Sequence record: MN871446.1 | DNA from: Klebsiella phage KpLz-2_45 | Direction: 5' to 3' (one strand) | DNA length: 64,000 bases | Shown: positions 3,225 to 57,785 of the stretch, one piece after another | Layout of the letters: each line of letters starts with the position of its first letter | How positions within the stretch are numbered: the stretch's first letter is position 1 | Position numbers and translations under genes: made by a program | The notes under the pieces: model-generated | Told to the model about the DNA's origin: nothing | The model's input: the letters and a program-made list of their open reading frames with translations, nothing else | The model's database searches: none

Positions 3225-3615
3225 GATAGGTACGTGAGTTCATCCGTTCCGTGTAACATTCACCGTAAATACCGTATCGATCCCATTGAGAACGAAGATC
3301 GCTAAGGATTTTTTCTAATACGCCTGTATTTTTCATTTTTTCAATTTCTTCCTGAAGAGACATGTAAAACGATAACTGGTCCCGATAATAAGGATCATCG
3401 GGAATCGTTTCAAAATCGCTTTCCAGCGGGTCAATGTTGTTCGAGTAATAAATCTCAATGAACAGTTTGTTATAATCTTTAGCTTTTCCTTTTTCCCAGT
3501 GGTACGCGGTAGAAAGGAAAGCGTCTATAATCTGATCCCGCCAGAGACCCTTATAGCCGTCGGTGAAGACCTTAAGCGCCGGGGGGATTTCGAAGAGATA
3601 TTTTTGCACTGCCAT
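3211..3615 (-). CDS. hypothetical protein
   Basis: 134-aa ORF. Confidence 0.45.
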   Translation of the reverse strand: MAVQKYLFEIPPALKVFTDGYKGLWRDQIIDAFLSTAYHWEKGKAKDYNKLFIEIYYSNNIDPLESDFETIPDDPYYRDQLSFYMSLQEEIEKMKNTGVLEKILSDLRSQWDRYGIYGECYTERMNSRTYLVYR

Positions 3616-4049
3616 AAATCAGGATTCCTCTGACGAAACTCTTCATCATCTACCCAAACCATTAATGCGTTCCGTTGTATATCGAGCGATTCGATATGAA
3701 GCAGATTAACCGGAAGTTTCAATGGTACGCCACCGTACTCTTTTTCCAATACCCTGGCTACTTGCCATATCTTCTCTGTCTCCCAATGGTCATTATCAAT
3801 AATTAAATACTCAGGCGGAATCGTGTTATACGTCCGGTCTAACCAGTGGGCTAAAATCCTTAACCGATAGAACCGATCCATTGTCGGTGTCATATCGAGA
3901 AAATGCTTAATATCGATGACAATCAACATGGTCTTCAGTTCCCAGTGTAATTTCAAAATGATTGTGTTGGAAAGAAAAGTCGAGGACACGATAATGACGC
4001 GGGACACCCTCCAATTGAAAGAGCGTAGTGAGTTCCTTTTCTTTTTCAT
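3525..4049 (-). CDS. hypothetical protein
   Basis: 174-aa ORF. Internal Met codons (MLIVID.., MTPTMD..) could be the real start and would remove the overlap with the upstream ORF. Confidence 0.4.
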   Translation of the reverse strand: MKKKRNSLRSFNWRVSRVIIVSSTFLSNTIILKLHWELKTMLIVIDIKHFLDMTPTMDRFYRLRILAHWLDRTYNTIPPEYLIIDNDHWETEKIWQVARVLEKEYGGVPLKLPVNLLHIESLDIQRNALMVWVDDEEFRQRNPDLWQCKNISSKSPRRLRSSPTAIRVSGGIRL

Positions 4050-4356
4050 TAACTCGATTGAAGATCGCTTCGATCATTGCGTTAAAATCACGTTTATCTC
4101 TACCCGGTAGCATTTTGCTGGGTTCTACCTTATCGGTTAACAAATAGATCCCTTGCGCCCAATGCTTTCTTTCCCGGAAATGAAACCACGTCATCCAGGT
4201 CGCGTAGAAAATTTCTTTCACGGTGAAAATACCGTGATAAGGTGAATTAATCCAGTAAAAGATCTTTGGGATCTCGCCTTTAACAATCATGACGTCACCA
4301 GACTTCCTGTAAGTCATTCTAAGCCTCTTTTTACTGTCAGTAGTACTATCTATCAA
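3907..4356 (-). CDS. hypothetical protein
   Basis: 149-aa ORF. First gene after the 4357-4521 intergenic region. Confidence 0.45.
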   Translation of the reverse strand: MIDSTTDSKKRLRMTYRKSGDVMIVKGEIPKIFYWINSPYHGIFTVKEIFYATWMTWFHFRERKHWAQGIYLLTDKVEPSKMLPGRDKRDFNAMIEAIFNRVNEKEKELTTLFQLEGVPRHYRVLDFSFQHNHFEITLGTEDHVDCHRY

Positions 4357-4429
4357 ATAAATTGATAAACCCGTACAAAGCGATTACAACTATGTTCAAT
4401 AGGGTAATATATGTCCTATTTCTTTTCCA

Positions 4430-4475
4430 ACAAAACAAAATAAAAAAGACGGAGCGGGAAAACCCCGCTCCGTTG
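4430..4475 (-). terminator. intrinsic terminator downstream of the tubulin-like gene
   Basis: Perfect 11-bp stem GACGGAGCGGG/CCCGCTCCGTC with GAAAA loop. On the minus strand it is followed by TTTTTTATTTTGTTTTG. Confidence 0.8.
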
Positions 4476-4521
4476 ATGATCTTAAATGATTGAAGCAGAT
4501 AAAAGTCCTACATACTAACGA

Positions 4522-5490
4522 CTAGAGTTCCATCCCGTCGCCCTGAACATCGCCACGGATAAAGTTCTGCGCAGCCTTGGACTTCTTATCGCGTGCAGCG
4601 CGACGTTGTTCGTAGTCGTCAAACGTTTGGCGAAGTTCCATTAAGATCTCATTCAGTCCATCTGTATGAATGACAAAATAAAGCGAATCTTCCCCTGTAC
4701 GTTTACGGGTACCGAACGTGTTATAGTCCGCTGGGATAGTACCGGCTACCGGCTTGTTGTCGCCGTAGAGTTCCGCAACTGAAATAGGTGCGTTAACGCT
4801 CACTGCATCATCACGGTCCTGGAAGACGTCAAGGAGACCGAGCTCCGGGCTTACGCCTGCACCAAGAACGGGTTTCGCCCAGGTCAGTACGTCCGCAGAA
4901 TCCAGTCCATGATGTTTCCCGGAATAAAGATCCAGAACGGCGCGGATGGTAGCGATCATGATCGCATCGACTTCGGCGTTGCGCAGGTTGTTCTCATTGC
5001 TCTCGTAACAGACGTTACAGAACTGATTGTTCTTGATCGCAATGTTACGCAGCGACGAAATAGTCTTCATGGTGTTTTCGGTGGTATTACCCGATTCTGT
5101 CGAACCGACTAAAAAGACCAGCACCGCTTTATTCTGCGCATAAAGCGCTTCGATCAGTTTCGGACCAATGACCGAACCGCTGCCGCCGGAGGCGGAGAAG
5201 ATCAGAATGTTGAGATCGGACGGCTTCAACTTAAAGAGAATGTCGCTGATGCTTCGGTTCGTGACGTCGTAGTTGGTTTTACGGATTTTCCCTGCGCCGT
5301 CTACGCCCTCGAGGAAATACCATTTGTCAGGGTCTTGAACAGACCGCTCGGAAACGTTGGAACGACTACCGTCAACATACGCTTCTTTGACGTTAGCAAG
5401 TTCAGAAAGATCGGTGCGCATGAGTTTAGTGAGGATGTCGATACCCGCACCACCTGCGCCGTAAATAGTTACTGTGTTATTCGATGACAT
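4522..5490 (-). CDS. tubulin/FtsZ-fold GTPase (PhuZ/TubZ-like phage tubulin)
   Basis: N-terminal glycine box TIYGAGGAGIDIL (compare FtsZ GVGGGGNNAV). T4-loop signature ILIFSASGGSGSVIGPKLIE (compare tubulin GGGTGSG, FtsZ GGGTGTG). 322 aa, within the size range of phage PhuZ proteins. Monocistronic, with its own terminator. Confidence 0.65.
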   Translation of the reverse strand: MSSNNTVTIYGAGGAGIDILTKLMRTDLSELANVKEAYVDGSRSNVSERSVQDPDKWYFLEGVDGAGKIRKTNYDVTNRSISDILFKLKPSDLNILIFSASGGSGSVIGPKLIEALYAQNKAVLVFLVGSTESGNTTENTMKTISSLRNIAIKNNQFCNVCYESNENNLRNAEVDAIMIATIRAVLDLYSGKHHGLDSADVLTWAKPVLGAGVSPELGLLDVFQDRDDAVSVNAPISVAELYGDNKPVAGTIPADYNTFGTRKRTGEDSLYFVIHTDGLNEILMELRQTFDDYEQRRAARDKKSKAAQNFIRGDVQGDGMEL

Positions 5491-5576
5491 AATACGGTCG
5501 CTCCTTATGTTGGACCAAAAGTCGTATCATAGTACTTTATAACAAGACGTAAAATAATCGATGGAGGATCTCAAAG

Positions 5577-6407
5577 ATGGTGTTACAGAAAGTGATTTCT
5601 GATATTCGTTTTATCATTCCTAAAGAGGTACTCGAAGTTGCCTTTTTAGGTGACGTCGGGTTGGAAAGAAAACGACCCGGTTCATTGGATTGGGAAATTC
5701 GTAACAAAGTGATCGACGCGAAAGTCAGACCCGATTGTAATTTACTGGGTGCGCTGGAAATGAACATTCCGCTGGCAAACGCAGAAGTAACTTACGATAC
5801 CAGCGGTCTTTACCGCAACACGGTAAGAATCCCTAAGTCATTAACCGGCGGACGTTCTATCGTGCTCCCCACTTACTTTAACTATTACTACTACACCGGG
5901 GCGATCGGTCAAGTTGGTGGCTACATGGCCAATAACTACTCGAGCAACACGTGTGGTAACTCACCGTTAATGGCACAGGCCAGTCGAATCCTACAATCCT
6001 CCGCGAACTCCGATGCTACCGGTACCGCGGCAGTAAGATTGATCGGTGAAAACACGGTAACGATTAACGACTATATCGGCTCGATTACACAAGGTTCATT
6101 GGTTTGTTTAGTGAGCCACGATTCCGAGATGAATTCTATCGGTCCCCGTGCAGTTCCACAGTTCTCCAAACTCTGTCAACTGGCTTGTAAAGCGTACATC
6201 TACAACACGTTAAAAGTTAAGTTGAACGGCGGGTATCTTTCAGGTGGTACCGAGCTGGGAGAGATCCAAAATGTCGTGGACAGCTACTCTGATGCTGCTG
6301 AACAGTATTCTGAGTATTACGAGAACGAATGGCAGATGGTTCAGTTCAGTAACGATGATACACGTAACTCGTGGTATCTCCGTAATTTGATTGGCGGTGG
6401 CGCATAA
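5577..6407 (+). CDS. hypothetical protein, possibly a virion protein (codon-optimised)
   Basis: Strong SD GGAGGA 8 nt upstream of the ATG. Isolated plus-strand gene with GC-rich third codon positions. Gly/Tyr/Asn-rich (YFNYYYYTGAIGQVGGY). Followed by a hairpin terminator. Confidence 0.6.
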   Translation: MVLQKVISDIRFIIPKEVLEVAFLGDVGLERKRPGSLDWEIRNKVIDAKVRPDCNLLGALEMNIPLANAEVTYDTSGLYRNTVRIPKSLTGGRSIVLPTYFNYYYYTGAIGQVGGYMANNYSSNTCGNSPLMAQASRILQSSANSDATGTAAVRLIGENTVTINDYIGSITQGSLVCLVSHDSEMNSIGPRAVPQFSKLCQLACKAYIYNTLKVKLNGGYLSGGTELGEIQNVVDSYSDAAEQYSEYYENEWQMVQFSNDDTRNSWYLRNLIGGGA

Positions 6408-6410
6408 CGG

Positions 6411-6443
6411 GTAGGAGGGGTAAACCCTCCTACCTCTATGTTT
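6411..6443 (+). terminator. intrinsic terminator
   Basis: Stem GTAGGAGGG/CCCTCCTAC with GTAAA loop, then CTCTATGTTT. Confidence 0.6.
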
Positions 6444-7263
6444 AGTGTAGTCGTAATACGACGCAACTAGCGTCGAGATCAATCGCAGTGACCCCTTCGT
6501 TTTCTTTATCGGAGATAGCAAGGCGGTAAAAGTTGACCTCGTTCACTGCGCCCATTAATCGATCGCTGTAAACGGTTTCTTCAATCTCGGTTTTTCCGCT
6601 GGCAAACGTATAACCTTCGACCGTCCCGTAGCACATCGCAAGCATGGAACCGATAACGTAGTTCCATTCTGATTCCTGCCACGTTTCTCCCTGAAAGACA
6701 GAGAACAGGATTCTGGCGTTGGTTCTCTCTTCGATGAGTAAGAGCGCATCTTTACCAATGAAGTGCGGGTTATTCTGGTCAGCGTATTGATAGACCAACA
6801 AAGTTTTGCTGGTCTTGCTGTCCTTTATTTCAAAACCTTCTTCGATATTCCAAAAGATGAAATAATCTTCATTGTTCTTCGCCATCAGTTCGTAGAAATC
6901 TAAAATACCGTCAGCGTCAAAGGTGGGCCTGGCGTACACTCCACCATTGACGTAAGGGAACGGTGAGCCTTCGTTAAGTTCCTTTATCTGGAACACTGCA
7001 GCGACTACCGCGTCGTCCGGTATCGCATCGACATCCGACAGCAACAAAGAAACTTCTAGTAACGATAGCGAAGGTGTCTCGGTTTCAGGGACGCCGGTAA
7101 ACGATATCGCCCAAACCGTGTGACCACCGGTAGGGAACGTCATCGTGACGAGAATCGTCCCAATACCGATGTCACTCTTTTTAGGAAGCGGATGTATACT
7201 GACAGTACCCTTCGATTTCTCTGATGTAGACAAGCCCACTGCATTTTCAACTACCGTCTCCAT
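6442..7263 (-). CDS. hypothetical protein
   Basis: 273-aa ORF. Confidence 0.5.
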   Translation of the reverse strand: METVVENAVGLSTSEKSKGTVSIHPLPKKSDIGIGTILVTMTFPTGGHTVWAISFTGVPETETPSLSLLEVSLLLSDVDAIPDDAVVAAVFQIKELNEGSPFPYVNGGVYARPTFDADGILDFYELMAKNNEDYFIFWNIEEGFEIKDSKTSKTLLVYQYADQNNPHFIGKDALLLIEERTNARILFSVFQGETWQESEWNYVIGSMLAMCYGTVEGYTFASGKTEIEETVYSDRLMGAVNEVNFYRLAISDKENEGVTAIDLDASCVVLRLH

Positions 7264-7283
7264 TCCTACCCCCAGGTATAAAC

Positions 7284-7745
7284 TCAGTTTGTTTCTAATC
7301 TTTTAAACACAGCCGTATTTCTAACGCTATTAAAATATTGGAGCAACTGCGTCTTATCGGTAACAACAATGTTATACTTGTCTAAAATTTCCTGGAATAA
7401 AGCAGATAAGTTACCCAACTCATCAATGATTGGGATTTCGTTTAAGAGCCACCACCATCGCCCTTTGATCCGGGTGATTGCAGGCTGCCCCCAGACTAAC
7501 CCTTTCATCTCGAAATGATAATGCGAAGAAAGGTTCTCTTCTACCTGATTTAACAGGCTTCTAATCGGACCAGCTTCTTTACTCTTCCTGAGAATACGGT
7601 AAACAACGAGTGTTCCGTCAATGGCAACTACCACGCTATGTCGAATTGTCTTCGAGGAAAGCGAAAGGGTTAAAAGACAATCCGTGTCGTTCATTAAAGT
7701 GAGATCAAGAAGATGGCCATCGGTAAAACGAACTGTAGTACTCAT
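7284..7745 (-). CDS. hypothetical protein
   Basis: 153-aa ORF. Confidence 0.5.
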   Translation of the reverse strand: MSTTVRFTDGHLLDLTLMNDTDCLLTLSLSSKTIRHSVVVAIDGTLVVYRILRKSKEAGPIRSLLNQVEENLSSHYHFEMKGLVWGQPAITRIKGRWWWLLNEIPIIDELGNLSALFQEILDKYNIVVTDKTQLLQYFNSVRNTAVFKRLETN

Positions 7746-10524: not shown

Positions 10525-11205
10525 TCAGCGAGGTGAATGGTTATCTGCAAGGGCTATAGGTAACTGGTTCTGAAACGCGTAAAGCGTGACTTCCTGTTTA
10601 TACGCCTTGCGGTGATTTGAAACGACGGAGTTGACGTATTGCTTGAATCCGGCAACTGTGCGGGGTTTACCTTTATCAGTGTAGAAGTACGCGCGATTAC
10701 CTGCTGCGCCTCCTGCCACCCTTACCGCTAACCGATCATTTCGTGCCTTCAATATTTTCACTGCACCGCCGGGTCCTAACAGATGGGCCATGTAGATTTC
10801 ATTGATCCCGACCTGACGCTGGAGTGAACGCTCTAAAAACTCTTTGTTCTCCTTCATGTACGCTACCGCCATAAGCGTGTTCGCACGTGAGTTTTTTACA
10901 CTGGTTCCGGGTTTGACCCCGTACTGTTTACCGTACTTCTTTACCGTGGCTCGCCACGTTCGATCTGTAAAACCAAATAGTCCTTTTGCTGAAGAGTGTT
11001 TATTGTGCATACCGGCGCCCATCGTACTTTCAATGGAAGCCATGGTAACCAAGTCAATCATTTTAACGTCGGTTTTTTGAGATACTCGATATAAGGTATC
11101 GCTATGCTTTGCAAAGCCTACGCTATTAGTCGAGACAGATGCGGTTGCTGGGGTAGCAATAATGCTTACCAGGCAAAGGACAAGCGCCCAGAAATAGTTT
11201 GGCAT
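10525..11205 (-). CDS. lytic transglycosylase (phiKZ gp144-type catalytic domain) with N-terminal signal/SAR-like hydrophobic segment
   Basis: N-terminus [24 protein letters not shown] is a hydrophobic stretch rich in A/S/T. Catalytic motif [11 protein letters not shown] plus [10 protein letters not shown] and [11 protein letters not shown] match SLT-family motifs. These segments align collinearly with the catalytic half of phiKZ gp144, recalled from memory as [34 protein letters not shown]. Confidence 0.8.
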   Translation of the reverse strand: [226 protein letters not shown]

Positions 11206-11301
11206 TTCTCATATTTCCTATTCAAATCAAAAGAAAGCCAAGGTAACCCTTGGTTACGTATCTCAACGTAACCGGGCATACCCTGACTATAGAAAGGCGA
11301 A

Positions 11302-11949
11302 CTATTGTACCGAAATCACCCGCTCTTTCATCAAAGGGAAATCAAGATTCGTCCGGAAATCGACAATCTCGTGATCAAAGAAGCTGATATAGACGCGTTC
11401 ACGGTCAACCAGATTACCAATAACAAAACGCGTAGTACCGAGTCGGATATGTTCCGCGACGACACTGAATGCGTACAGCAGCTCACCCGGATTAAACGGT
11501 ATACTGTTCCCCTCGACGTTATCGACAGGCAATGACAATACTTCTGCCGCCACGAAGATGTGTGTTGTTCCTCGATGCCACCATGCGTATTTGTGCACGC
11601 CTTCTTTCACCTTCAACATCACCGCAGGAATATCCGGGCGAGTGAGATCAAGAGCAATCTGCTGCACTGTTGGGAAAGTCGCACAGAGTTCAAAGAGTAC
11701 CCAGAAGAGATCTTTGTGATCCTCTCCTACCGCTGCATTCAGTTCCTCAATAGCGGTTGCGCTACCGTACTGACCGATAACACTACTGAAGACAACGGGT
11801 TCGTCCAATAACTTGCTCCCTGGGTGTGGCACGTTCTCGAAGTTTTGAGTTTCTTCCGCACTGATTGGAACGGTCAGGGTCAAAGTTTCCGTAGCGTTAT
11901 CCAACGTGAAGTTACCGGTCTGGAAGATTTTAAGTTCTGGTTTACTCAT
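11302..11949 (-). CDS. hypothetical protein
   Basis: 215-aa ORF. Upstream leader ACTAACCTTAATACGGAAAAGAAAATG resembles the recurrent leader motif. Confidence 0.5.
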   Translation of the reverse strand: MSKPELKIFQTGNFTLDNATETLTLTVPISAEETQNFENVPHPGSKLLDEPVVFSSVIGQYGSATAIEELNAAVGEDHKDLFWVLFELCATFPTVQQIALDLTRPDIPAVMLKVKEGVHKYAWWHRGTTHIFVAAEVLSLPVDNVEGNSIPFNPGELLYAFSVVAEHIRLGTTRFVIGNLVDRERVYISFFDHEIVDFRTNLDFPLMKERVISVQ

Positions 11950-12148
11950 TTTCTTTTCCGTATTAAGGTTAGTCTAACAAATCAAGAGAAGGTAACGTGA
12001 CTTTGCAAATCGAAGTCAAGGTCAACTACTTAACCGTTATGACTTTTAGAGTCATAACTCTAAGGATGGACCTACGGTCTAATTAACGCACAGGCTTCGC
12101 CGTGCGAAGGTCAACAGATAAATATAAATAAATTTATTTTTCGATGAA

Positions 12149-12556
12149 TCAACTTTTGTACAACGCGATTACCTTCAAAATCTCACTGACCATCGAATCG
12201 GGAAGTTTGAAATCGTTCCGTTCCATTTGTTCCTTAAAGAGACGAATCTCTTTCAATGACCGATCCACTCGTAAACCGAAACGATCTCCTAACCAGAACA
12301 ACATCGGGTTTTTCATAAAACGTTTCAGTAGGCGTTGCTCGGGTTCCGTCAGTTCGTCAAACGTCCGTAAGACTTTAATGCGTAAGAGCAGCGGACGGCG
12401 TTTCGGGGATTCTAAGTAACGAGAGAGACGTTCAAAGAGTTCATTGTCAGAAATCTCTGGATTTTTCTCAGAAGGGATTAACCGATCGATATAGTCATCA
12501 CTGAATCCAAAAGAGCGAAGGAAACGTTCCGCAACGTCATAGTGGCGAATGGCCAT
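12149..12556 (-). CDS. hypothetical protein
   Basis: 135-aa ORF. Leader TACTAACTAGAGGAG is upstream of the ATG. Confidence 0.5.
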   Translation of the reverse strand: MAIRHYDVAERFLRSFGFSDDYIDRLIPSEKNPEISDNELFERLSRYLESPKRRPLLLRIKVLRTFDELTEPEQRLLKRFMKNPMLFWLGDRFGLRVDRSLKEIRLFKEQMERNDFKLPDSMVSEILKVIALYKS

Positions 12557-12612
12557 GGTAATACTCCTCTAGTTAGTACATTCAATAACGTGATATAGTT
12601 TTTAATTCAATT

Positions 12613-12649
12613 TGAAACAAAAAAAAAGAAAGGGGCGAACCCCTCTCTT
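12613..12649 (-). terminator. intrinsic terminator
   Basis: Imperfect stem AGAAAGGGG/CCCCTCTCT (9 of 10 bp). On the minus strand it is followed by TTTTTTTTT. Confidence 0.65.
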
Positions 12650-12650
12650 T

Positions 12651-13016
12651 TCAGCTGATCGGAACGATCTCGAGAAACCGTTTACTGACAGTAATACGGC
12701 TCCGTTTTCGTTTCGCCAACGCACGTTCCAGCACCGCCCGCAGTTTGATTGCTTGTAGCCGGGTTAAGTCCCAGACAATCTCTTTGCGCGTGACACATTT
12801 CCAGAACCCCCAGTAAGCGCCCGTGGAGATACGGATGATATTGTTCTCAGAAGCGATGAGACGCTCTCTCAGCGTCGGTAATTCCAACGTCAGTAAATGA
12901 CCAGGGGTTTTGATAGAGTCGGTTAGCTTGTCATTCAGCGCGTTATAGAGCGCTTTCATTTCACGGGGCTCGATAACCATATCTCGATACCCGTAAACTT
13001 GAATCTCAACGGCCAT
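12651..13016 (-). CDS. hypothetical protein, tandem paralogue A
   Basis: 121 aa. C-terminal W..TR.QA..L...LE.A.LAKR.RS.R..VS is shared with the adjacent ORF. Confidence 0.55.
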   Translation of the reverse strand: MAVEIQVYGYRDMVIEPREMKALYNALNDKLTDSIKTPGHLLTLELPTLRERLIASENNIIRISTGAYWGFWKCVTRKEIVWDLTRLQAIKLRAVLERALAKRKRSRITVSKRFLEIVPIS

Positions 13017-14878: not shown

Positions 14879-14985
14879 TTTCTTTTCCTCTAAGCTTAGT
14901 TATTCAGAAAGGTCTTTCCTTTCCTTCTTCACCTTGGCTATATATACATCAAAAAAACTGCATTTCATTCTCTTAGAAAGTTTTT
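14879..14985. promoter_or_regulatory. conserved divergent intergenic cassette, copy A
   Basis: Minus-gene leader variant AACTAAGCTTAGAGG sits next to the ATG at 14878. A pyrimidine tract TTTCCTTTCC follows. Then comes the box CACCTTGGCTATATATACATCAAAAAAACTGCATTTC (14930-14966), which ends about 20 nt upstream of the plus-strand ATG at 14986. The box is nearly identical to copy B. Confidence 0.5.
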
Positions 14986-17421: not shown

Positions 17422-17465
17422 GTTGCGTATTTCAATAGAGTGATATATTCGTCTATTGTTTTCGA

Positions 17466-19658
17466 TTACCTATAGAAATTCGTCCCCATGTATTTTTGGA
17501 AGTCAGCGTGACGATTAGCGTTCATCTCCTCGATCTTACCTGCCACGTTAATCGGCTCTGCACCCGCCTCTTGTAAACACTCGTTAAGGTAATTGAGACG
17601 TCGTTCAAGCTTCATACTGATAATTGGATTATCGGCATTTTCGATGGCTGACAATGTCTTTTCAATTTCACGGTGGAGGAAATCAATCTCTTCCTGCTGC
17701 TCGTCAATTTCCTGCGCATTCCCTGCCAACGCATCTACTGCCCCCGTCAATACCCTTCTGGAATCTAACCCGTAATAGTCTAAGTTCGACCCGTACAATA
17801 ACAGATAGACGGTCAGAAGGTAGGCGATAACGGTATCGTCATGTCCACCCGGTGGATGGTCAATTCTTCCGTTCTTCTCGACCAACCCGGTCAATTCCGC
17901 AATGAGAATTTTATCATGAAGTCGTGTAGCCCCTTTCTGCATGGCGATCTTCAAAACGGTTTCGTAAAGCTGACGTCGGGTGGTGGTTCCCGTGCAGAAA
18001 CCAAACTTCGTTTTACGACGAATATAGAATGCGTCATCACGACGGTTCATGTCACCCTGCAGCTCAAGGAACGCCGCGGTGTCCACTGACTTATTATCGA
18101 CAATTAAGTTAAAGATTCGTTTGAACGGATCAATTCCCTTGCTGTGCAATATCAGACAGAGGTAATCAATAAACGTTTGTCCGGTGGATTTACGTTCTGG
18201 GATGAAGACAGCCTTAGGATAAGAAATTAACAGATCACCTAAGAACTCAGCGTATTTAGGAATCAGTGCTTCGTTGATTACTGAAATCCCGATAACGTCC
18301 GCAGTATAAGGATCAAGGAACACCAACGACAGCGCATCTCGTCCACCGCCTTCTGAGGTATCGGCCCCAATGACAAAGGTCATTGTCTTACGATTTGCAT
18401 CCAGATATTCTTTGGAGACATACCAGTGGACAATGTAACCGTTCCTGAAGATTTCGGAATAATCGGAATAACGCTGTGAGGCAATGGCTTTCGCTAACAA
18501 CTCTTTATCAATTGGGTTGTTCGTCCCTGCTGCGGTCCAGATGTTAAAGAAGTCACGGTCTGCTTCTGGACCACGTGCCATAGCACGACGCATGTTCTCG
18601 TAATGCTGTTCGTCAGAGACCCCAACCTGGTTGTGACTCCACGTTCCGTTGATTAAGAGTTTCGCATCAGAGGATTTCAGATTGCGCTGAACGATCTCAC
18701 GAAGTTCTTCTTGACTCCCTGCGTCGTAAAAGTGCTCAGACCACCGAGCAGCTTCGTTCCACATTTTGAAAACAAAGCGACCATCACGAGACGTTTGGTC
18801 ACCCGCGGTAGTGGTCATGATACTGCCCCAGGGCATGTTTCTCGCTTTCGCTTTTTGAATCGCGGCGTTCATACCGGGCATTGCTGCTTTAAACGCAATT
18901 TCGATATAGTTGATGAAGGGGGTTTCATCCCAGCCTACCGTAGGCGAGGTGTTACCACGGCCAACTTTATTCGCACCACCTGGGTCAGAACGAGATACTG
19001 CTACCGCAAACAAGTTACCACGGGTGTTATAGGTCACCTTCTCGTTAGCAATCGTGTCTGAACGGTCTGTTACTGTCAGATAAGGTGGTAAGTATTCACG
19101 GATACGACGTATCATCGTGGTTGTTTCAGAACGTAATTCGTCTGATTTGGTCACGAGTGAGATACGGGCCTTTGTATATCGCATATACAGCAGCCAGGAG
19201 TAAAGACAATAAGAGATAAGTGACTTACCAGTCTGACGGGGTTGTATCAACAGGTAATCGATATGGTTCATGTACGACCAGATCAAAGACATGTTCGCGC
19301 GGTTTGCTCTTAAAAGATCACCTTCTTCACCGACAACCGGCGGAACGCGAAGACACTCTCTGAGATAATACCAGATGTTATATTCCGCTTCGATCTTAAT
19401 TGCGATCATCTGTTCTTCAGTCAGATCGGGACTGAAAGGATCGACACCGACAAGGTCCGGGTTTAAAAGTGCAATCGGCCAGTGGTGGTTTTTAATTCCC
19501 ATGTTTTGTAAGACACCGACAAAACGTAGGAATTCTTTGTTTGGTGTATCCCAATCCGGGATAGCAGAGGGATGATAATCCCAATCGCTAAGGTGGAGAA
19601 TAGGACGCGAATCATTCTCTAGAATAATGGAGGAGGTCATAGAGTTTCCCTCTGACAA
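17466..19658 (-). CDS. terminase large subunit
   Basis: 730 aa. Walker-A-like LIQPRQTGKSL in the N-terminal ATPase half. Nuclease-half acidic motifs VIGADTSEGGGRDALSLVFLD and GRIDHPPGGHDDTVIAYLL match the terminase RNase-H-like nuclease pattern. Confidence 0.75.
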   Translation of the reverse strand: MSEGNSMTSSIILENDSRPILHLSDWDYHPSAIPDWDTPNKEFLRFVGVLQNMGIKNHHWPIALLNPDLVGVDPFSPDLTEEQMIAIKIEAEYNIWYYLRECLRVPPVVGEEGDLLRANRANMSLIWSYMNHIDYLLIQPRQTGKSLISYCLYSWLLYMRYTKARISLVTKSDELRSETTTMIRRIREYLPPYLTVTDRSDTIANEKVTYNTRGNLFAVAVSRSDPGGANKVGRGNTSPTVGWDETPFINYIEIAFKAAMPGMNAAIQKAKARNMPWGSIMTTTAGDQTSRDGRFVFKMWNEAARWSEHFYDAGSQEELREIVQRNLKSSDAKLLINGTWSHNQVGVSDEQHYENMRRAMARGPEADRDFFNIWTAAGTNNPIDKELLAKAIASQRYSDYSEIFRNGYIVHWYVSKEYLDANRKTMTFVIGADTSEGGGRDALSLVFLDPYTADVIGISVINEALIPKYAEFLGDLLISYPKAVFIPERKSTGQTFIDYLCLILHSKGIDPFKRIFNLIVDNKSVDTAAFLELQGDMNRRDDAFYIRRKTKFGFCTGTTTRRQLYETVLKIAMQKGATRLHDKILIAELTGLVEKNGRIDHPPGGHDDTVIAYLLTVYLLLYGSNLDYYGLDSRRVLTGAVDALAGNAQEIDEQQEEIDFLHREIEKTLSAIENADNPIISMKLERRLNYLNECLQEAGAEPINVAGKIEEMNANRHADFQKYMGTNFYR

Positions 19659-35284: not shown

Positions 35285-35364
35285 GATAATTTACCTTTTG
35301 AATTGAATATTTTAACTACGGGTGAGAGTGCACTACTCACGCTGTTGAGAGGCAGCGCTTACTA

Positions 35365-35484
35365 CTATTTGACCGCTTTTAAGTAACTCCCTACGGCGAC
35401 GGCGAAAACACAGGCCGGGAGTAAAGCCAAGTCAAGAATAAGTACCGAGGAAATAATTCCCAGTACCGCGAAAGACGTTTTCAT
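35365..35484 (-). CDS. tiny membrane protein (39 aa)
   Basis: Not in the track. MKTSFAVLGIISSVLILDLALLPACVFAVAVGSYLKAVK. Its ATG overlaps the TAA of the upstream micro-gene by 1 nt. Confidence 0.35.
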   Translation of the reverse strand: MKTSFAVLGIISSVLILDLALLPACVFAVAVGSYLKAVK

Positions 35485-35654
35485 TACAACGCCTCCGGTG
35501 AATGGGTTGCGTTGAAATTGGCTTTGTTAGTTTGCTCTTCTAAAAACGCTCCGGCGGCCCCTGCTATGAAAGCTACCAGAAGTGTTGGGATGATAGTCAG
35601 TTCAAAGAAGGTGCAGATCAGCAGGGTGAGAATTAATGCGATGAAGTAAGTCAT
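35484..35654 (-). CDS. tiny membrane protein (56 aa)
   Basis: Not in the track. MTYFIALILTLLICTFFELTIIPTLLVAFIAGAAGAFLEEQTNKANFNATHSPEAL. Confidence 0.4.
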   Translation of the reverse strand: MTYFIALILTLLICTFFELTIIPTLLVAFIAGAAGAFLEEQTNKANFNATHSPEAL

Positions 35655-35669
35655 GATGATTTCTCCTTC

Positions 35670-35828
35670 TTAGGGTAAATAGGTAACGGTGACTAACAGA
35701 GCGAACGGTGAAACGATATACCAGACGAGCACAGAGACGAATCCGTAAAGGATGGCCATCGGTAACGAGACGCCGAAACAAAGCAACGCAATGAGCGTGA
35801 CAATTAATAAAAGTATACTTTCTTTCAT
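35670..35828 (-). CDS. tiny membrane protein (52 aa)
   Basis: Not in the track. MKESILLLIVTLIALLCFGVSLPMAILYGFVSVLVWYIVSPFALLVTVTYLP. Preceded by the conserved leader AACTAAACCAATAAGAGG. Confidence 0.4.
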   Translation of the reverse strand: MKESILLLIVTLIALLCFGVSLPMAILYGFVSVLVWYIVSPFALLVTVTYLP

Positions 35829-35939
35829 TTTACTTTACCTCTTATTGGTTTAGTTATTTGGAAAAGACTTTTTCCTTTCCTATTTCACCTTAGCAATATA
35901 TACATCAAAAAAACTGCATTTCGATTTATTGAAGTTTTT
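35829..35939. promoter_or_regulatory. conserved divergent intergenic cassette, copy B
   Basis: Leader CTTATTGGTTTAGTTA (35841-35856). Pyrimidine tract TTTTTCCTTTCC. Box CACCTTAGCAATATATACATCAAAAAAACTGCATTTC (35886-35922), about 95% identical to copy A. Confidence 0.5.
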
Positions 35940-38765: not shown

Positions 38766-38873
38766 TCCAATAGGTTTAGTTATTTTATTTACGGAAAGGT
38801 TTTATCTTTCCTAAATCACTGTAGCTATATAGATGTTAAAAAAATTGGAGATGGGTTCATCTCCAATTGTCTG
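38766..38873. promoter_or_regulatory. conserved intergenic cassette, copy D (no plus-strand gene follows)
   Basis: Leader CCAATAGGTTTAGTTA (38767-38782). Tract TTTATCTTTCC. Box CACTGTAGCTATATAGATGTTAAAAAAATTGGAG (38817-38850). Then a hairpin TTGGAGATG GGTT CATCTCCAA. Lies between two minus-strand genes. Confidence 0.45.
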
Positions 38874-41551: not shown

Positions 41552-42260
41552 CTAAGAAAAATTCCATGGCATCACGGTACCGGTGCCAGCATTGCGTATC
41601 ACGGAAATGATAGATTTTATCAAGCTCAGTAATACGGTCAGTGACAAGTTTGTGAAGATGCGCGTAGTAACGCCCTTTCGGAAGAAACTGCGTAAAGAGA
41701 TCTTTTTCCGTGAGCCAAATTTTAAGGAAGGTGACTTCTATCCCTTCAACGTCTTTTAGGTTGTCGAGGATATCTGCCAATTTCACCGCCCACGCGTCAG
41801 GGTTAGCGGAGTTAAGGAGTTTCGTCGCCTCTAACATCGTTCGGTCTTTCCGGTTCGCTTGTATGGTTTTAGTCGTATAGCGATCCGTAACCCAATCAAC
41901 GAGTTTCAGTGTCTCGTCAACCAGTTGAGTGTAATTACCGTCTATGCTATCAAACGTAAACAGCATAAAACGGAGATCCTCTAAAGAGATCTCGGTATCC
42001 TCAACCACGTCATGAAGTAGACCTGCACAGACTACGGTGATAGGGTAGTCATTTTCCTTAAGTGTTTCACTGACGGAAAACGGATGAATGTAATAAGGTT
42101 TGTTAGACCCTTTTCTTTTTTGTCCGGTGGCAGAATGCGTTGACATCGCCACCAAATTACAAACAGAATATAATTTTCGTTCCGCTTCAGTTTTCAATCC
42201 AAAAGCCCTCTGAGTAGATTTCAATAAGGTGATATAGTCTTCAAATAAATTCCACAGCAC
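41493..42260 (-). CDS. HD-domain (p)ppGpp hydrolase, SpoT/Mesh1-like small alarmone hydrolase
   Basis: YYIHPFSV, LLHDVVEDT (compare SpoT ALLHDVIEDT) and VKLADILDNLK (compare SpoT KLADRLHNMR) appear in the correct order and spacing. Confidence 0.8.
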   Translation of the reverse strand: MLWNLFEDYITLLKSTQRAFGLKTEAERKLYSVCNLVAMSTHSATGQKRKGSNKPYYIHPFSVSETLKENDYPITVVCAGLLHDVVEDTEISLEDLRFMLFTFDSIDGNYTQLVDETLKLVDWVTDRYTTKTIQANRKDRTMLEATKLLNSANPDAWAVKLADILDNLKDVEGIEVTFLKIWLTEKDLFTQFLPKGRYYAHLHKLVTDRITELDKIYHFRDTQCWHRYRDAMEFFLDDNNRKEFENAYRINPESC

Positions 42261-50948: not shown

Positions 50949-51012
50949 ACCTTATTTTTTGTTAATGATGTTAACTGCAATAGGGTGATATAGTTATCAA
51001 ACTAATTGGAAC
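50949..51012 (+). promoter_or_regulatory. partial copy of the conserved plus-side promoter-like box upstream of the tailspike gene
   Basis: TCACCTTATTTTTTG...GGGTGATATAGTTATCAAACTAATTGG aligns with CAATATATACATGAAAAAAATTGG of copy C. CTATG follows about 30 nt before the ATG. Confidence 0.35.
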
Positions 51013-57012: not shown

Positions 57013-57645
57013 TTAGTTAAAGAACGGCGCCATGTTCGCACTGAATTTAATATCTTCAGCGTGTTTGAATTTGATCGTTGTAACAGTGATCGGTTCGTAG
57101 TTGGCCATGTTAACAATCGACAGCGTTTTATCGAGGTAGATAACGTTGTCACGGATGATCATGTGGTAATGCTCACGTTCCCCGCTTTGTACTTTAGCCA
57201 CTTCGTCAATGAAGATATCCGTTTCCGGATTAAAGCTGAAGTCGCTCGGCATAACTTTCACAGGGTTCTGTTCGCGATAACGCTTAATATTAACGATAAC
57301 TTCTTCTACCCCGTAGACGATAGAAAGAATATCCGTCTCTTCTTCGAAGTCTGCGAGTTCATCAGGAGTAAGAATCGTGCTGTCGAGGTATTCGCGTTTG
57401 TACGGCCAGTTGGCCAGGAATTCTGGCTCGTCGCACATCGTGGAAAACGCCTCTCTATTTTCGCAGTACATCCAAAAACGGTCGCCCGTACTCATACGAG
57501 TCTCCACGATTAAATCTGCCGTTTCCGGGATAGAATTTTCAAAATCGAAGCGCGGCGTGAATGTGGCGAAATTCTCGGAGAGCGTGTCCGGGGTCAAATC
57601 AAAGTTAGCGTCTTTAGCGAAAACAGTAATAGTGAAAGTGGTCAT
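57013..57645 (-). CDS. hypothetical protein
   Basis: 210-aa ORF preceded by the leader AACTAAACCAATAAGGAATATATCATG. Confidence 0.55.
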   Translation of the reverse strand: MTTFTITVFAKDANFDLTPDTLSENFATFTPRFDFENSIPETADLIVETRMSTGDRFWMYCENREAFSTMCDEPEFLANWPYKREYLDSTILTPDELADFEEETDILSIVYGVEEVIVNIKRYREQNPVKVMPSDFSFNPETDIFIDEVAKVQSGEREHYHMIIRDNVIYLDKTLSIVNMANYEPITVTTIKFKHAEDIKFSANMAPFFN

Positions 57646-57785
57646 GATATATTCCTTATTGGTTTAGTTAAAAGTATGATAAAAAGGTTATTCTTTTCCT
57701 TTATCACTCGGGCAATATATACATGAAAAAAATTGGAGATTAATCTTATGACTTTTTCACTGAACATAACCAGGTTGAATACTCT
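57646..57785. promoter_or_regulatory. conserved divergent intergenic cassette, copy C, with a 15-codon uORF
   Basis: Leader CCTTATTGGTTTAGTTA (57654-57670). Tract TTCTTTTCCTTT. Box CACTCGGGCAATATATACATGAAAAAAATTGGAG (57705-57738). The GGAG serves as SD for a tiny ORF, ATG 57748 to TAA 57795, whose end overlaps the glycosyltransferase ATG at 57786. Confidence 0.5.

Follow-up and report, generated by a model that had tools for sequence, protein, structure and literature searches.

Does the gene at positions 4522 to 5490 of Klebsiella phage KpLz-2_45 (MN871446.1) encode a phage tubulin of the PhuZ type, and does it belong to a phage that builds a nucleus? The question was raised by a first-pass annotation of a 64,000-nucleotide stretch of this phage, referred to here as the window, in which an open reading frame (ORF) at 4522-5490 had been read as a PhuZ-like GTPase of the tubulin/FtsZ fold. 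The coordinates of that ORF proved exact, and its strand, which had not been given, is minus. The peptides that had been quoted as an N-terminal G-box and a T4 loop are both found in the 322-amino-acid (aa) product, as is the charged C-terminal region: aa 8-20 read TIYGAGGAGIDIL, aa 99-110 read SASGGSGSVIGP, and the C-terminal region reads DDYEQRRAARDKKSKAAQNFIRGDVQGDGMEL. Taking the evidence as a whole, the best explanation, to which we assign a probability of roughly 0.9, is that a Klebsiella pneumoniae chimallivirus of ~300 kb carries its PhuZ tubulin gene here. The gene and its ribosome-binding site are placed as follows.

4522..5490, minus strand: phuZ coding sequence for a PhuZ-family phage tubulin, 322 aa plus stop codon, ATG start (ORF list)
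5501..5506, minus strand: ribosome-binding site AAGGAG, 10 nt 5' of the phuZ ATG (read from the sequence)

The block containing this ribosome-binding site, ATAAGGAG, is unchanged in the three closest relatives.

Profile, sequence and fold searches each put PhuZ first, in agreement with the family proposed at the outset. PHROG 4733, "tubulin PhuZ," matches the 322-aa protein over nearly its full length (aa 3-309) with an expectation value (E) of 3.9e-82. When the protein was compared with solved structures by phmmer, the best match was PhuZ of Escherichia phage Goslar (9pm9; E 3.7e-25, aa 4-308), and phiKZ gp39 (3zbp; E 8.7e-20) and 201phi2-1 PhuZ (3j5v and 3r4v; about 2e-18) were also recovered; gamma-tubulin (E 0.03) and phage c-st TubZ (E 0.25) were marginal matches only. 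Judged on sequence, the resemblance to PhuZ far exceeds chance. The only Pfam domain to pass is TubZ_C_2 ("Phage tubulin-like protein, C-terminal domain"), barely over its cutoff at 27.6 bits versus 27. The protein collection holds 144 homologs, and NCBI and UniRef list the identical protein (P0001) as "tubulin PhuZ [Klebsiella phage KpLz-2_45]"; the annotated sister genome PQ182779 likewise calls the gene "tubulin PhuZ." Identity is ~25% to phiKZ-like proteins and ~30% to 201phi2-1 PhuZ.

The fold search that the first-pass annotation had proposed against PhuZ and TubZ was carried out with Foldseek on an AlphaFold model built from alignment A1, which comprises 82 homologs. The model has a mean predicted local distance difference test score of 92.8 and a predicted template-modelling (TM) score of 0.90, with low confidence limited to the last ~20 residues. 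Against the PDB, ranks 1 to 5 are all PhuZ (E 7e-26 to 2e-22, TM 0.79-0.84), so that the solved PhuZ structures are the closest: Goslar 9pm9 (E 7e-26, TM 0.81), phiKZ 3zbq (TM 0.83) and 3zbp (TM 0.79), and 201phi2-1 3rb8 and 3r4v (TM 0.83-0.84). FtsZ, CetZ and TubZ rank after PhuZ, at E of about 1e-11 to 1e-12 and TM of 0.6-0.7 (CetZ 3zid, E 3.4e-12, TM 0.69; FtsZ, TM about 0.6; c-st TubZ, E about 1e-11, TM 0.66-0.71). The label "tubulin-like protein CetZ" carried by record PV112478 is unsupported, as CetZ and FtsZ fall far below PhuZ by fold; since they are merely distant fold matches, the label looks like an artefact of automatic annotation.

The residues on which a GTPase of this family depends are in place, as judged by conservation across the 82 homologs of alignment A1. 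The loops and the tail lie in the gene as follows.

5440..5460, minus strand: codons of the T1/G-box loop GAGGAGI (aa 11-17); G13 and G14 invariant, G16 at least 90% conserved
5170..5196, minus strand: codons of the T4 loop SASGGSGSV (aa 99-107), the PhuZ variant of the tubulin signature
4891..4902, minus strand: codons of the T7-loop DSAD (D197-D200), putative GTP-hydrolysis residues; D197 and D200 invariant
4525..4563, minus strand: codons of the C-terminal tail FIRGDVQGDGMEL (aa 310-322), after the long terminal helix

The GTP-binding loops are thus intact, with T1 as GGxG and T4 as GGxSGS, together with the T7 catalytic aspartates. Within T4, G102, G103 and G105 are invariant, and S99, S101, S104, S106 and V107 are at least 90% conserved. 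The classical tubulin signature is [SAG]GGTG[SA]G. The loop here, SGGSGSV, is no strict match to that pattern and is the PhuZ variant; it aligns with GGGSGSV of the 201phi2-1 protein (PhuZ201). In PhuZ201, the segment that aligns with D197 and D200 is LDVHD; further invariant positions are N139, N165, D40, S42, G65, R70 and Y256. One of the conserved T7 aspartates, here the pair D197 and D200, corresponds to D202 of Goslar PhuZ; the D202A substitution, designed against the putative GTP-hydrolysis site, altered filament dynamics, abolished the vortex and impaired rotation of the nucleus (PMC9891218). In the AlphaFold model, a long terminal helix (aa 279-310) is followed by the low-confidence tail. 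The family motif at the C terminus is [DE][DS]-G-[LM]-[VI]-[LF], read here as GDGMEL, with G319 at least 90% conserved, and the tail aligns to the ...DEDGM tail of PhuZ201. The PhuZ201 tail mediates polymerisation, as published structures show.

Whether the phage is a chimallivirus was addressed through its near-identical relatives. Window positions 3500-7500 are 100% identical to "Serratia phage KpXa_1" (MN871449, 304,264 bp, unannotated) and to KpYy_2_45; for six further K. pneumoniae phages of ~300 kb the identity is 98.7-99.5%. All eight of these records give K. pneumoniae as the host, which bears out the prediction of an enterobacterial host. Records MN871447-MN871453 are labelled "Serratia phage" (UNVERIFIED_ORG) despite the K. 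pneumoniae host and carry no annotation. The shell gene, predicted to lie outside the window, is found 3.7 kb beyond its left edge in MN871449, and the two companion genes named alongside phuZ in the first-pass annotation, a transglycosylase and a large terminase, are both present in the window.

L002 (MN871449) 10939-12840: chimallin gene, 633 aa, PHROG 4795, 3.7-5.6 kb left of window position 1
10525-11205: transglycosylase, confirmed in the window
17466-19658: large terminase, confirmed in the window

For the 633-aa chimallin, the search gave PHROG 4795, "nuclear shell protein," with E 1.3e-44, while PhuN/chimallin structures that have been solved were matched at E 7e-7 and 1e-4. The adjoining 484-aa ORF is an RNA polymerase beta subunit (phrog_2987, E 4.8e-144), so that chimallin and this subunit lie 3.7-7 kb from the window edge in MN871449; similarly, PQ182779 lists "nuclear shell protein" and "RNA polymerase beta subunit" about 8 kb from phuZ. 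Of the genes that had been expected beyond the window, chimallin was therefore recovered, and of the split multisubunit RNA polymerases, of which Chimalliviridae have a virion and a non-virion set, one beta subunit gene next to chimallin. No RNA polymerase subunit is found among the ten largest window ORFs, and a scan of the window found no tRNA genes. As chimallin is present in a genome that is 100% identical over the compared region, the prediction of an enterobacterial chimallivirus holds.

The phages KpXa_1, KpLz, LPKP23 and MJ359 form a group of ~300 kb whose nearest genus is Moabitevirus. By PhuZ identity, the closest named relatives are the Serratia Moabitevirus phages (53-55%) and Erwinia phage PhiEaH1 (43%). 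Two K. pneumoniae jumbo phages, phiKp5130 and phiKp9438, have been described as a novel genus with genomes of 298-299.5 kb, 45.6% guanine-plus-cytosine (GC) content and Moabitevirus as the nearest genus, and seven RNA polymerase subunit genes were reported in phiKp5130 (PMC10265529). The window has a GC content of 45.1%, and on size, GC content and host these two phages probably belong to the same group as KpLz-2_45. No paper on isolates KpXa, KpLz, LPKP23 or MJ359 was found in the literature.

Known enterobacterial chimalliviruses include Goslar, PCH45, RAY and Miami. Among characterised PhuZ proteins, filaments form a bipolar spindle in 201phi2-1, phiKZ and RAY and a vortex in Goslar. Goslar PhuZ is the best solved-structure match by both sequence and fold and likewise comes from a phage with an enterobacterial host, although it is only 27% identical and the extreme C-terminal tails are unaligned in the phmmer match; its vortex rotates the nucleus without centring it (PMC9891218). 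We found no primary paper for structure 9PM9 in the literature. PhuZ of 201phi2-1 (gp59; 3r4v, 3rb8 and 3j5v) shares the fold with the KpLz-2_45 protein, the T1, T4 and T7 loops align, and both proteins have a long terminal helix and an extended tail containing a terminal D-G-M motif; both come from chimallin-containing jumbo phages. The two differ in sequence (30% identity), in the number of acidic residues in the tail stretch (6 in 201phi2-1 versus 2 in KpLz-2_45) and in gene arrangement, since gp58-gp60 of 201phi2-1 are on one strand whereas phuZ of KpLz-2_45 has a divergent DUF7484 gene upstream. The tubulin-like proteins of Moabite, Totoro and Kodama (Serratia, Moabitevirus) and of PhiEaH1 are the closest named relatives; in Totoro and PhiEaH1 the gene order is the same, with a divergent ~276-aa gene beside phuZ, but the element upstream of phuZ is not conserved. 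No filament-formation studies of the Moabite, Totoro, Kodama or PhiEaH1 proteins were found in the literature. TubZ (c-st and Bacillus plasmids), FtsZ and CetZ share the superfamily fold and the logic of GTP binding, but match in sequence at E 0.25 or worse, and unlike FtsZ and CetZ the KpLz-2_45 protein is not of cellular origin.

The function of PhuZ in related phages has been described (PMC9891218) and reviewed (PMC13282480), and by homology a mechanism can be proposed for KpLz-2_45. GTP would be bound through the T1-T6 loops, and subunits would polymerise head to tail, the T7 loop (D197, D200) completing the GTPase site of the next subunit and its aspartates activating hydrolysis there, while the extended C-terminal tail (...GDGMEL) would reach neighbouring subunits and stabilise the filament. 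Dynamic filaments would then push on the chimallin-shelled nucleus, positioning and/or rotating it, and would carry capsids to it, which would raise phage yield with PhuZ not strictly essential. For phuZ, a promoter of its own within the 86-bp intergenic region would initiate transcription, and the terminator at 4473-4449 would end it. The data show the family, the fold, the conservation of catalytic and tail residues, and the co-occurrence of chimallin and a phage RNA polymerase subunit in one genome; GTP-dependent polymerisation, action on the nucleus, filament architecture and transcript boundaries are inferred.

The last of these steps concerns the transcription unit, which the first-pass annotation had called monocistronic and terminator-flanked. 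The features that bear on it are these.

5577..6407, plus strand: divergent neighbour, 276-aa DUF7484/phrog_3179 protein (PHROG 3179, E 4.8e-84; "virion structural protein" in the sister genome)
4439..4473, minus strand: intrinsic terminator of phuZ, a 10-bp GC-rich hairpin at 4473-4449 followed by CUUUUUUAUUUU
6409..6435, both strands: hairpin between the convergent genes 5577-6407 (plus) and 6442-7263 (minus), from the terminator scan
5526..5553, minus strand: candidate phuZ promoter region, with T-rich box TTATTTTACG, then GTACTATGA, and GTACTATG at 5528-5535

The 86 bp between the divergent genes are all the room left for a phuZ promoter. This head-to-head pairing of phuZ with the DUF7484 gene is kept in the metagenomic relatives L004-L007 (PhuZ identity 73%, 70% and 60%) and also in Serratia phage Totoro and Erwinia phage PhiEaH1, with PhuZ identity down to 43%. 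On the 3' side, the hairpin at 4473-4449 lies 49 nt past the phuZ stop and has a folding energy of -20.8 kcal/mol (z -5.8), a stability reached by none of 200 shuffles. Hairpins of other sequence occupy the same position in L004, L006 and L007 (-16.2, -15.8 and -23.0 kcal/mol), so that it is the structure that is conserved and not the sequence; the simple terminator scan gave a weak site in PhiEaH1 and none in Totoro. The hairpin at 6409-6435 (-25.6 kcal/mol on the plus strand, -21.8 on the minus strand, z below -5) has no clear U-tract on either strand and is about 900 nt from phuZ; it is likely a barrier that shields phuZ from upstream minus-strand transcription. Considering the divergent upstream gene, the strong and conserved 3' terminator and the promoter-like motif that follows it, phuZ is most likely transcribed as a single-gene unit. 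The description as terminator-flanked thus applies to the 3' side, the 5' flank being the divergent gene, and the monocistronic part is a prediction from the sequence.

As for the promoter itself, TTATTTTACG and GTACTATGA are conserved in the relatives with 73% and 70% PhuZ identity and weakly in the relative with 60%. GTACTATGA contains TATG, which is the core of phiKZ late promoters (PMC7598289). In the window, GTAYTATG occurs in 2 copies against 2.6 expected and is therefore not enriched; as the word TATG is both too short and unenriched, no conclusion is drawn from it. A host sigma-70 promoter, TTTACG-16-TATGAT at 5553-5526 (9 of 12 positions), was rejected as the main explanation, since such sites show no excess over shuffles and the -10 elements of the relatives lack the final T (TATGAC, TATGAG).

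Several observations weigh against the PhuZ reading and the unit proposed for its gene. With 27.2 bits, the Pfam Tubulin GTPase domain misses its gathering cutoff of 33, and identity to characterised PhuZ proteins is just 25-31%, so the filament architecture (spindle or vortex) is not transferable from them. PhuZ201 has the more acidic tail (DADDNVDEDGM versus GDVQGDGMEL here), and the penultimate Glu of the KpLz-2_45 tail is rare in the family (4/82). Conservation of the element upstream of phuZ vanishes in Totoro and PhiEaH1 by footprinting, and no recognised promoter class lies 5' of phuZ, both motif families of the window being absent there. Finally, the 2023 iScience description of the phiKp5130/phiKp9438 genus is without any mention of tubulin, PhuZ or a nuclear shell (PMC10265529), and PhuZ is dispensable to chimalliviruses, some of which have lost it (PMC13282480). 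Such losses, several in number according to this review and a publication on Asesino, would also fit a true PhuZ homolog whose role has drifted, either a weak or non-polymerising remnant or a protein acting on the host divisome or cell shape. Such a drift could draw as well on the less acidic tail, on the single "CetZ" label and on the failure of Goslar PhuZ to centre the nucleus (PMC9891218), but we consider it quite improbable: none of the 82 homologs departs from the nucleotide-binding and catalytic positions and the tail retains its terminal motif, a sign that purifying selection maintains both GTPase activity and the contacts of the polymer, the protein is 100% identical in the listed group members LPKP23 and KpZh_1, and CetZ and FtsZ are distant by fold. 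It is extremely improbable that the gene encodes a TubZ-type partition tubulin that segregates a phage or plasmid replicon with the help of the adaptor TubR and the centromere tubC, like those of clostridial phage c-st and Bacillus pXO1/pBtoxis. The superfamily fold is shared, the C-terminal Pfam match is named TubZ_C_2, and entry 3zbq gives even the phiKZ protein the name "TubZ," yet c-st TubZ reaches only E 0.25 by sequence and TM 0.66-0.71 versus more than 0.8 for PhuZ. Moreover, the neighbours of phuZ are the DUF7484 virion protein and small proteins without a PHROG match, nothing TubR-like, DNA-binding or partition-related is annotated nearby (repeats were not explicitly searched for), and the genome is that of a lytic-type 304-kb jumbo phage with chimallin.

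The remaining alternative accepts PhuZ and questions only its transcription: phuZ might not be a separate unit but be reached by transcription that begins at a promoter beyond 6435 and crosses the DUF7484 gene in antisense, or be co-transcribed with downstream genes by read-through. The missing minus-strand U-tract at hairpin 6409-6435 leaves room for the former, GTAYTATGA is unenriched across the window and loses its conservation in Totoro and PhiEaH1, and the termination signals of phage RNA polymerases are poorly defined. We nonetheless regard this as unlikely, since phuZ is followed by a canonical terminator (-20.8 kcal/mol, with a U-tract) that compensatory changes of sequence have preserved in three relatives, a promoter-like motif that is invariant in those relatives stands right after this terminator, and the arrangement of a divergent gene and a lone phuZ is kept across three host genera.

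That promoter-like motif and a second one recur in the window.

4397..4411, minus strand: promoter-like TATATTACCCTATTG, directly after the phuZ terminator and 5' of the gene at 3907-4318
14929-14956, 35885-35912, 38816-38843 and 57704-57731, minus strand: copies of a composite motif
L002 12904-12931: composite motif 63 nt 5' of the chimallin ATG

The TATATTACCCTATTG block is unchanged in three relatives with 60-73% PhuZ identity, and the ~90-nt non-coding block that contains it shows higher conservation among relatives than do the genes on either side; the simplest reading of TATATTACCCTATTG is that it serves as promoter for the next minus-strand unit. TATATYACNNTATTG has five exact copies in the window, all on the minus strand (4397-4411, 12583-12597, 17433-17447, 42222-42236 and 50978-50992), each of them shortly 5' of a minus-strand gene start. 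With up to 2 mismatches allowed, there are 7 matches versus 2.3 expected, and 0 of 100 shuffles reach 7. TATATYACNNTATTG is probably a phage promoter class. The copy at 17433 shows an odd arrangement, with a terminator-like hairpin and then the next gene. TATATTAC, a phiKZ-like word, was tried as a general promoter word and dropped, as it has one exact copy in the 64 kb versus 1.45 expected, the real repeat being the extended TATATYACNNTATTG. An unbiased search for enriched k-mers in intergenic regions returned only terminator T-runs and ribosome-binding site/ATG contexts.

The composite motif consists of T6-N6-TATAT-N2-C-N4-GTGA and a small GGAAAG...CTTTCC hairpin, with 4 copies in the window versus 0.01 expected. 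Its architecture resembles that of phiKZ early promoters, and it may serve as an early promoter for the virion RNA polymerase. The 57704 copy is antisense to the called plus-strand ORF 57377-57667, a call that may for this reason be wrong. Elsewhere, the 655 bp at 35285-35939 appear "intergenic" at the 70-aa ORF cutoff and contain minus-strand ribosome-binding site/ATG contexts and short hydrophobic frames; they probably encode small unannotated membrane proteins. In phiKZ, ChmA and PhuZ are early transcripts (PMC13282480). Because chimallin has the composite motif and phuZ is without it, phuZ of the Klebsiella and Serratia phages might no longer follow the early programme of the shell gene and might instead form an insulated single-gene unit under its own lineage-specific element, with the late-type TATG core; we rate this as doubtful. 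If it were true, synthesis of the spindle protein would lag behind that of the shell or be controlled separately, a departure from phiKZ.

The PhuZ assignment is already known, since the identical sequence carries the PhuZ name in GenBank, and the PhuZ family is well characterised; what is new, and only mildly so, is the architecture of transcription signals and the promoter-like motifs around phuZ. The window can be placed in a nucleus-forming K. pneumoniae jumbo phage with both chimallin and PhuZ, and if phiKp5130 and phiKp9438 are of the same group, their published genus is a nucleus-forming chimallivirus. According to published work, the nuclear shell keeps out host defences that target DNA, namely, restriction-modification and CRISPR-Cas, and membership in this group therefore matters for the choice of therapeutic Klebsiella phages.

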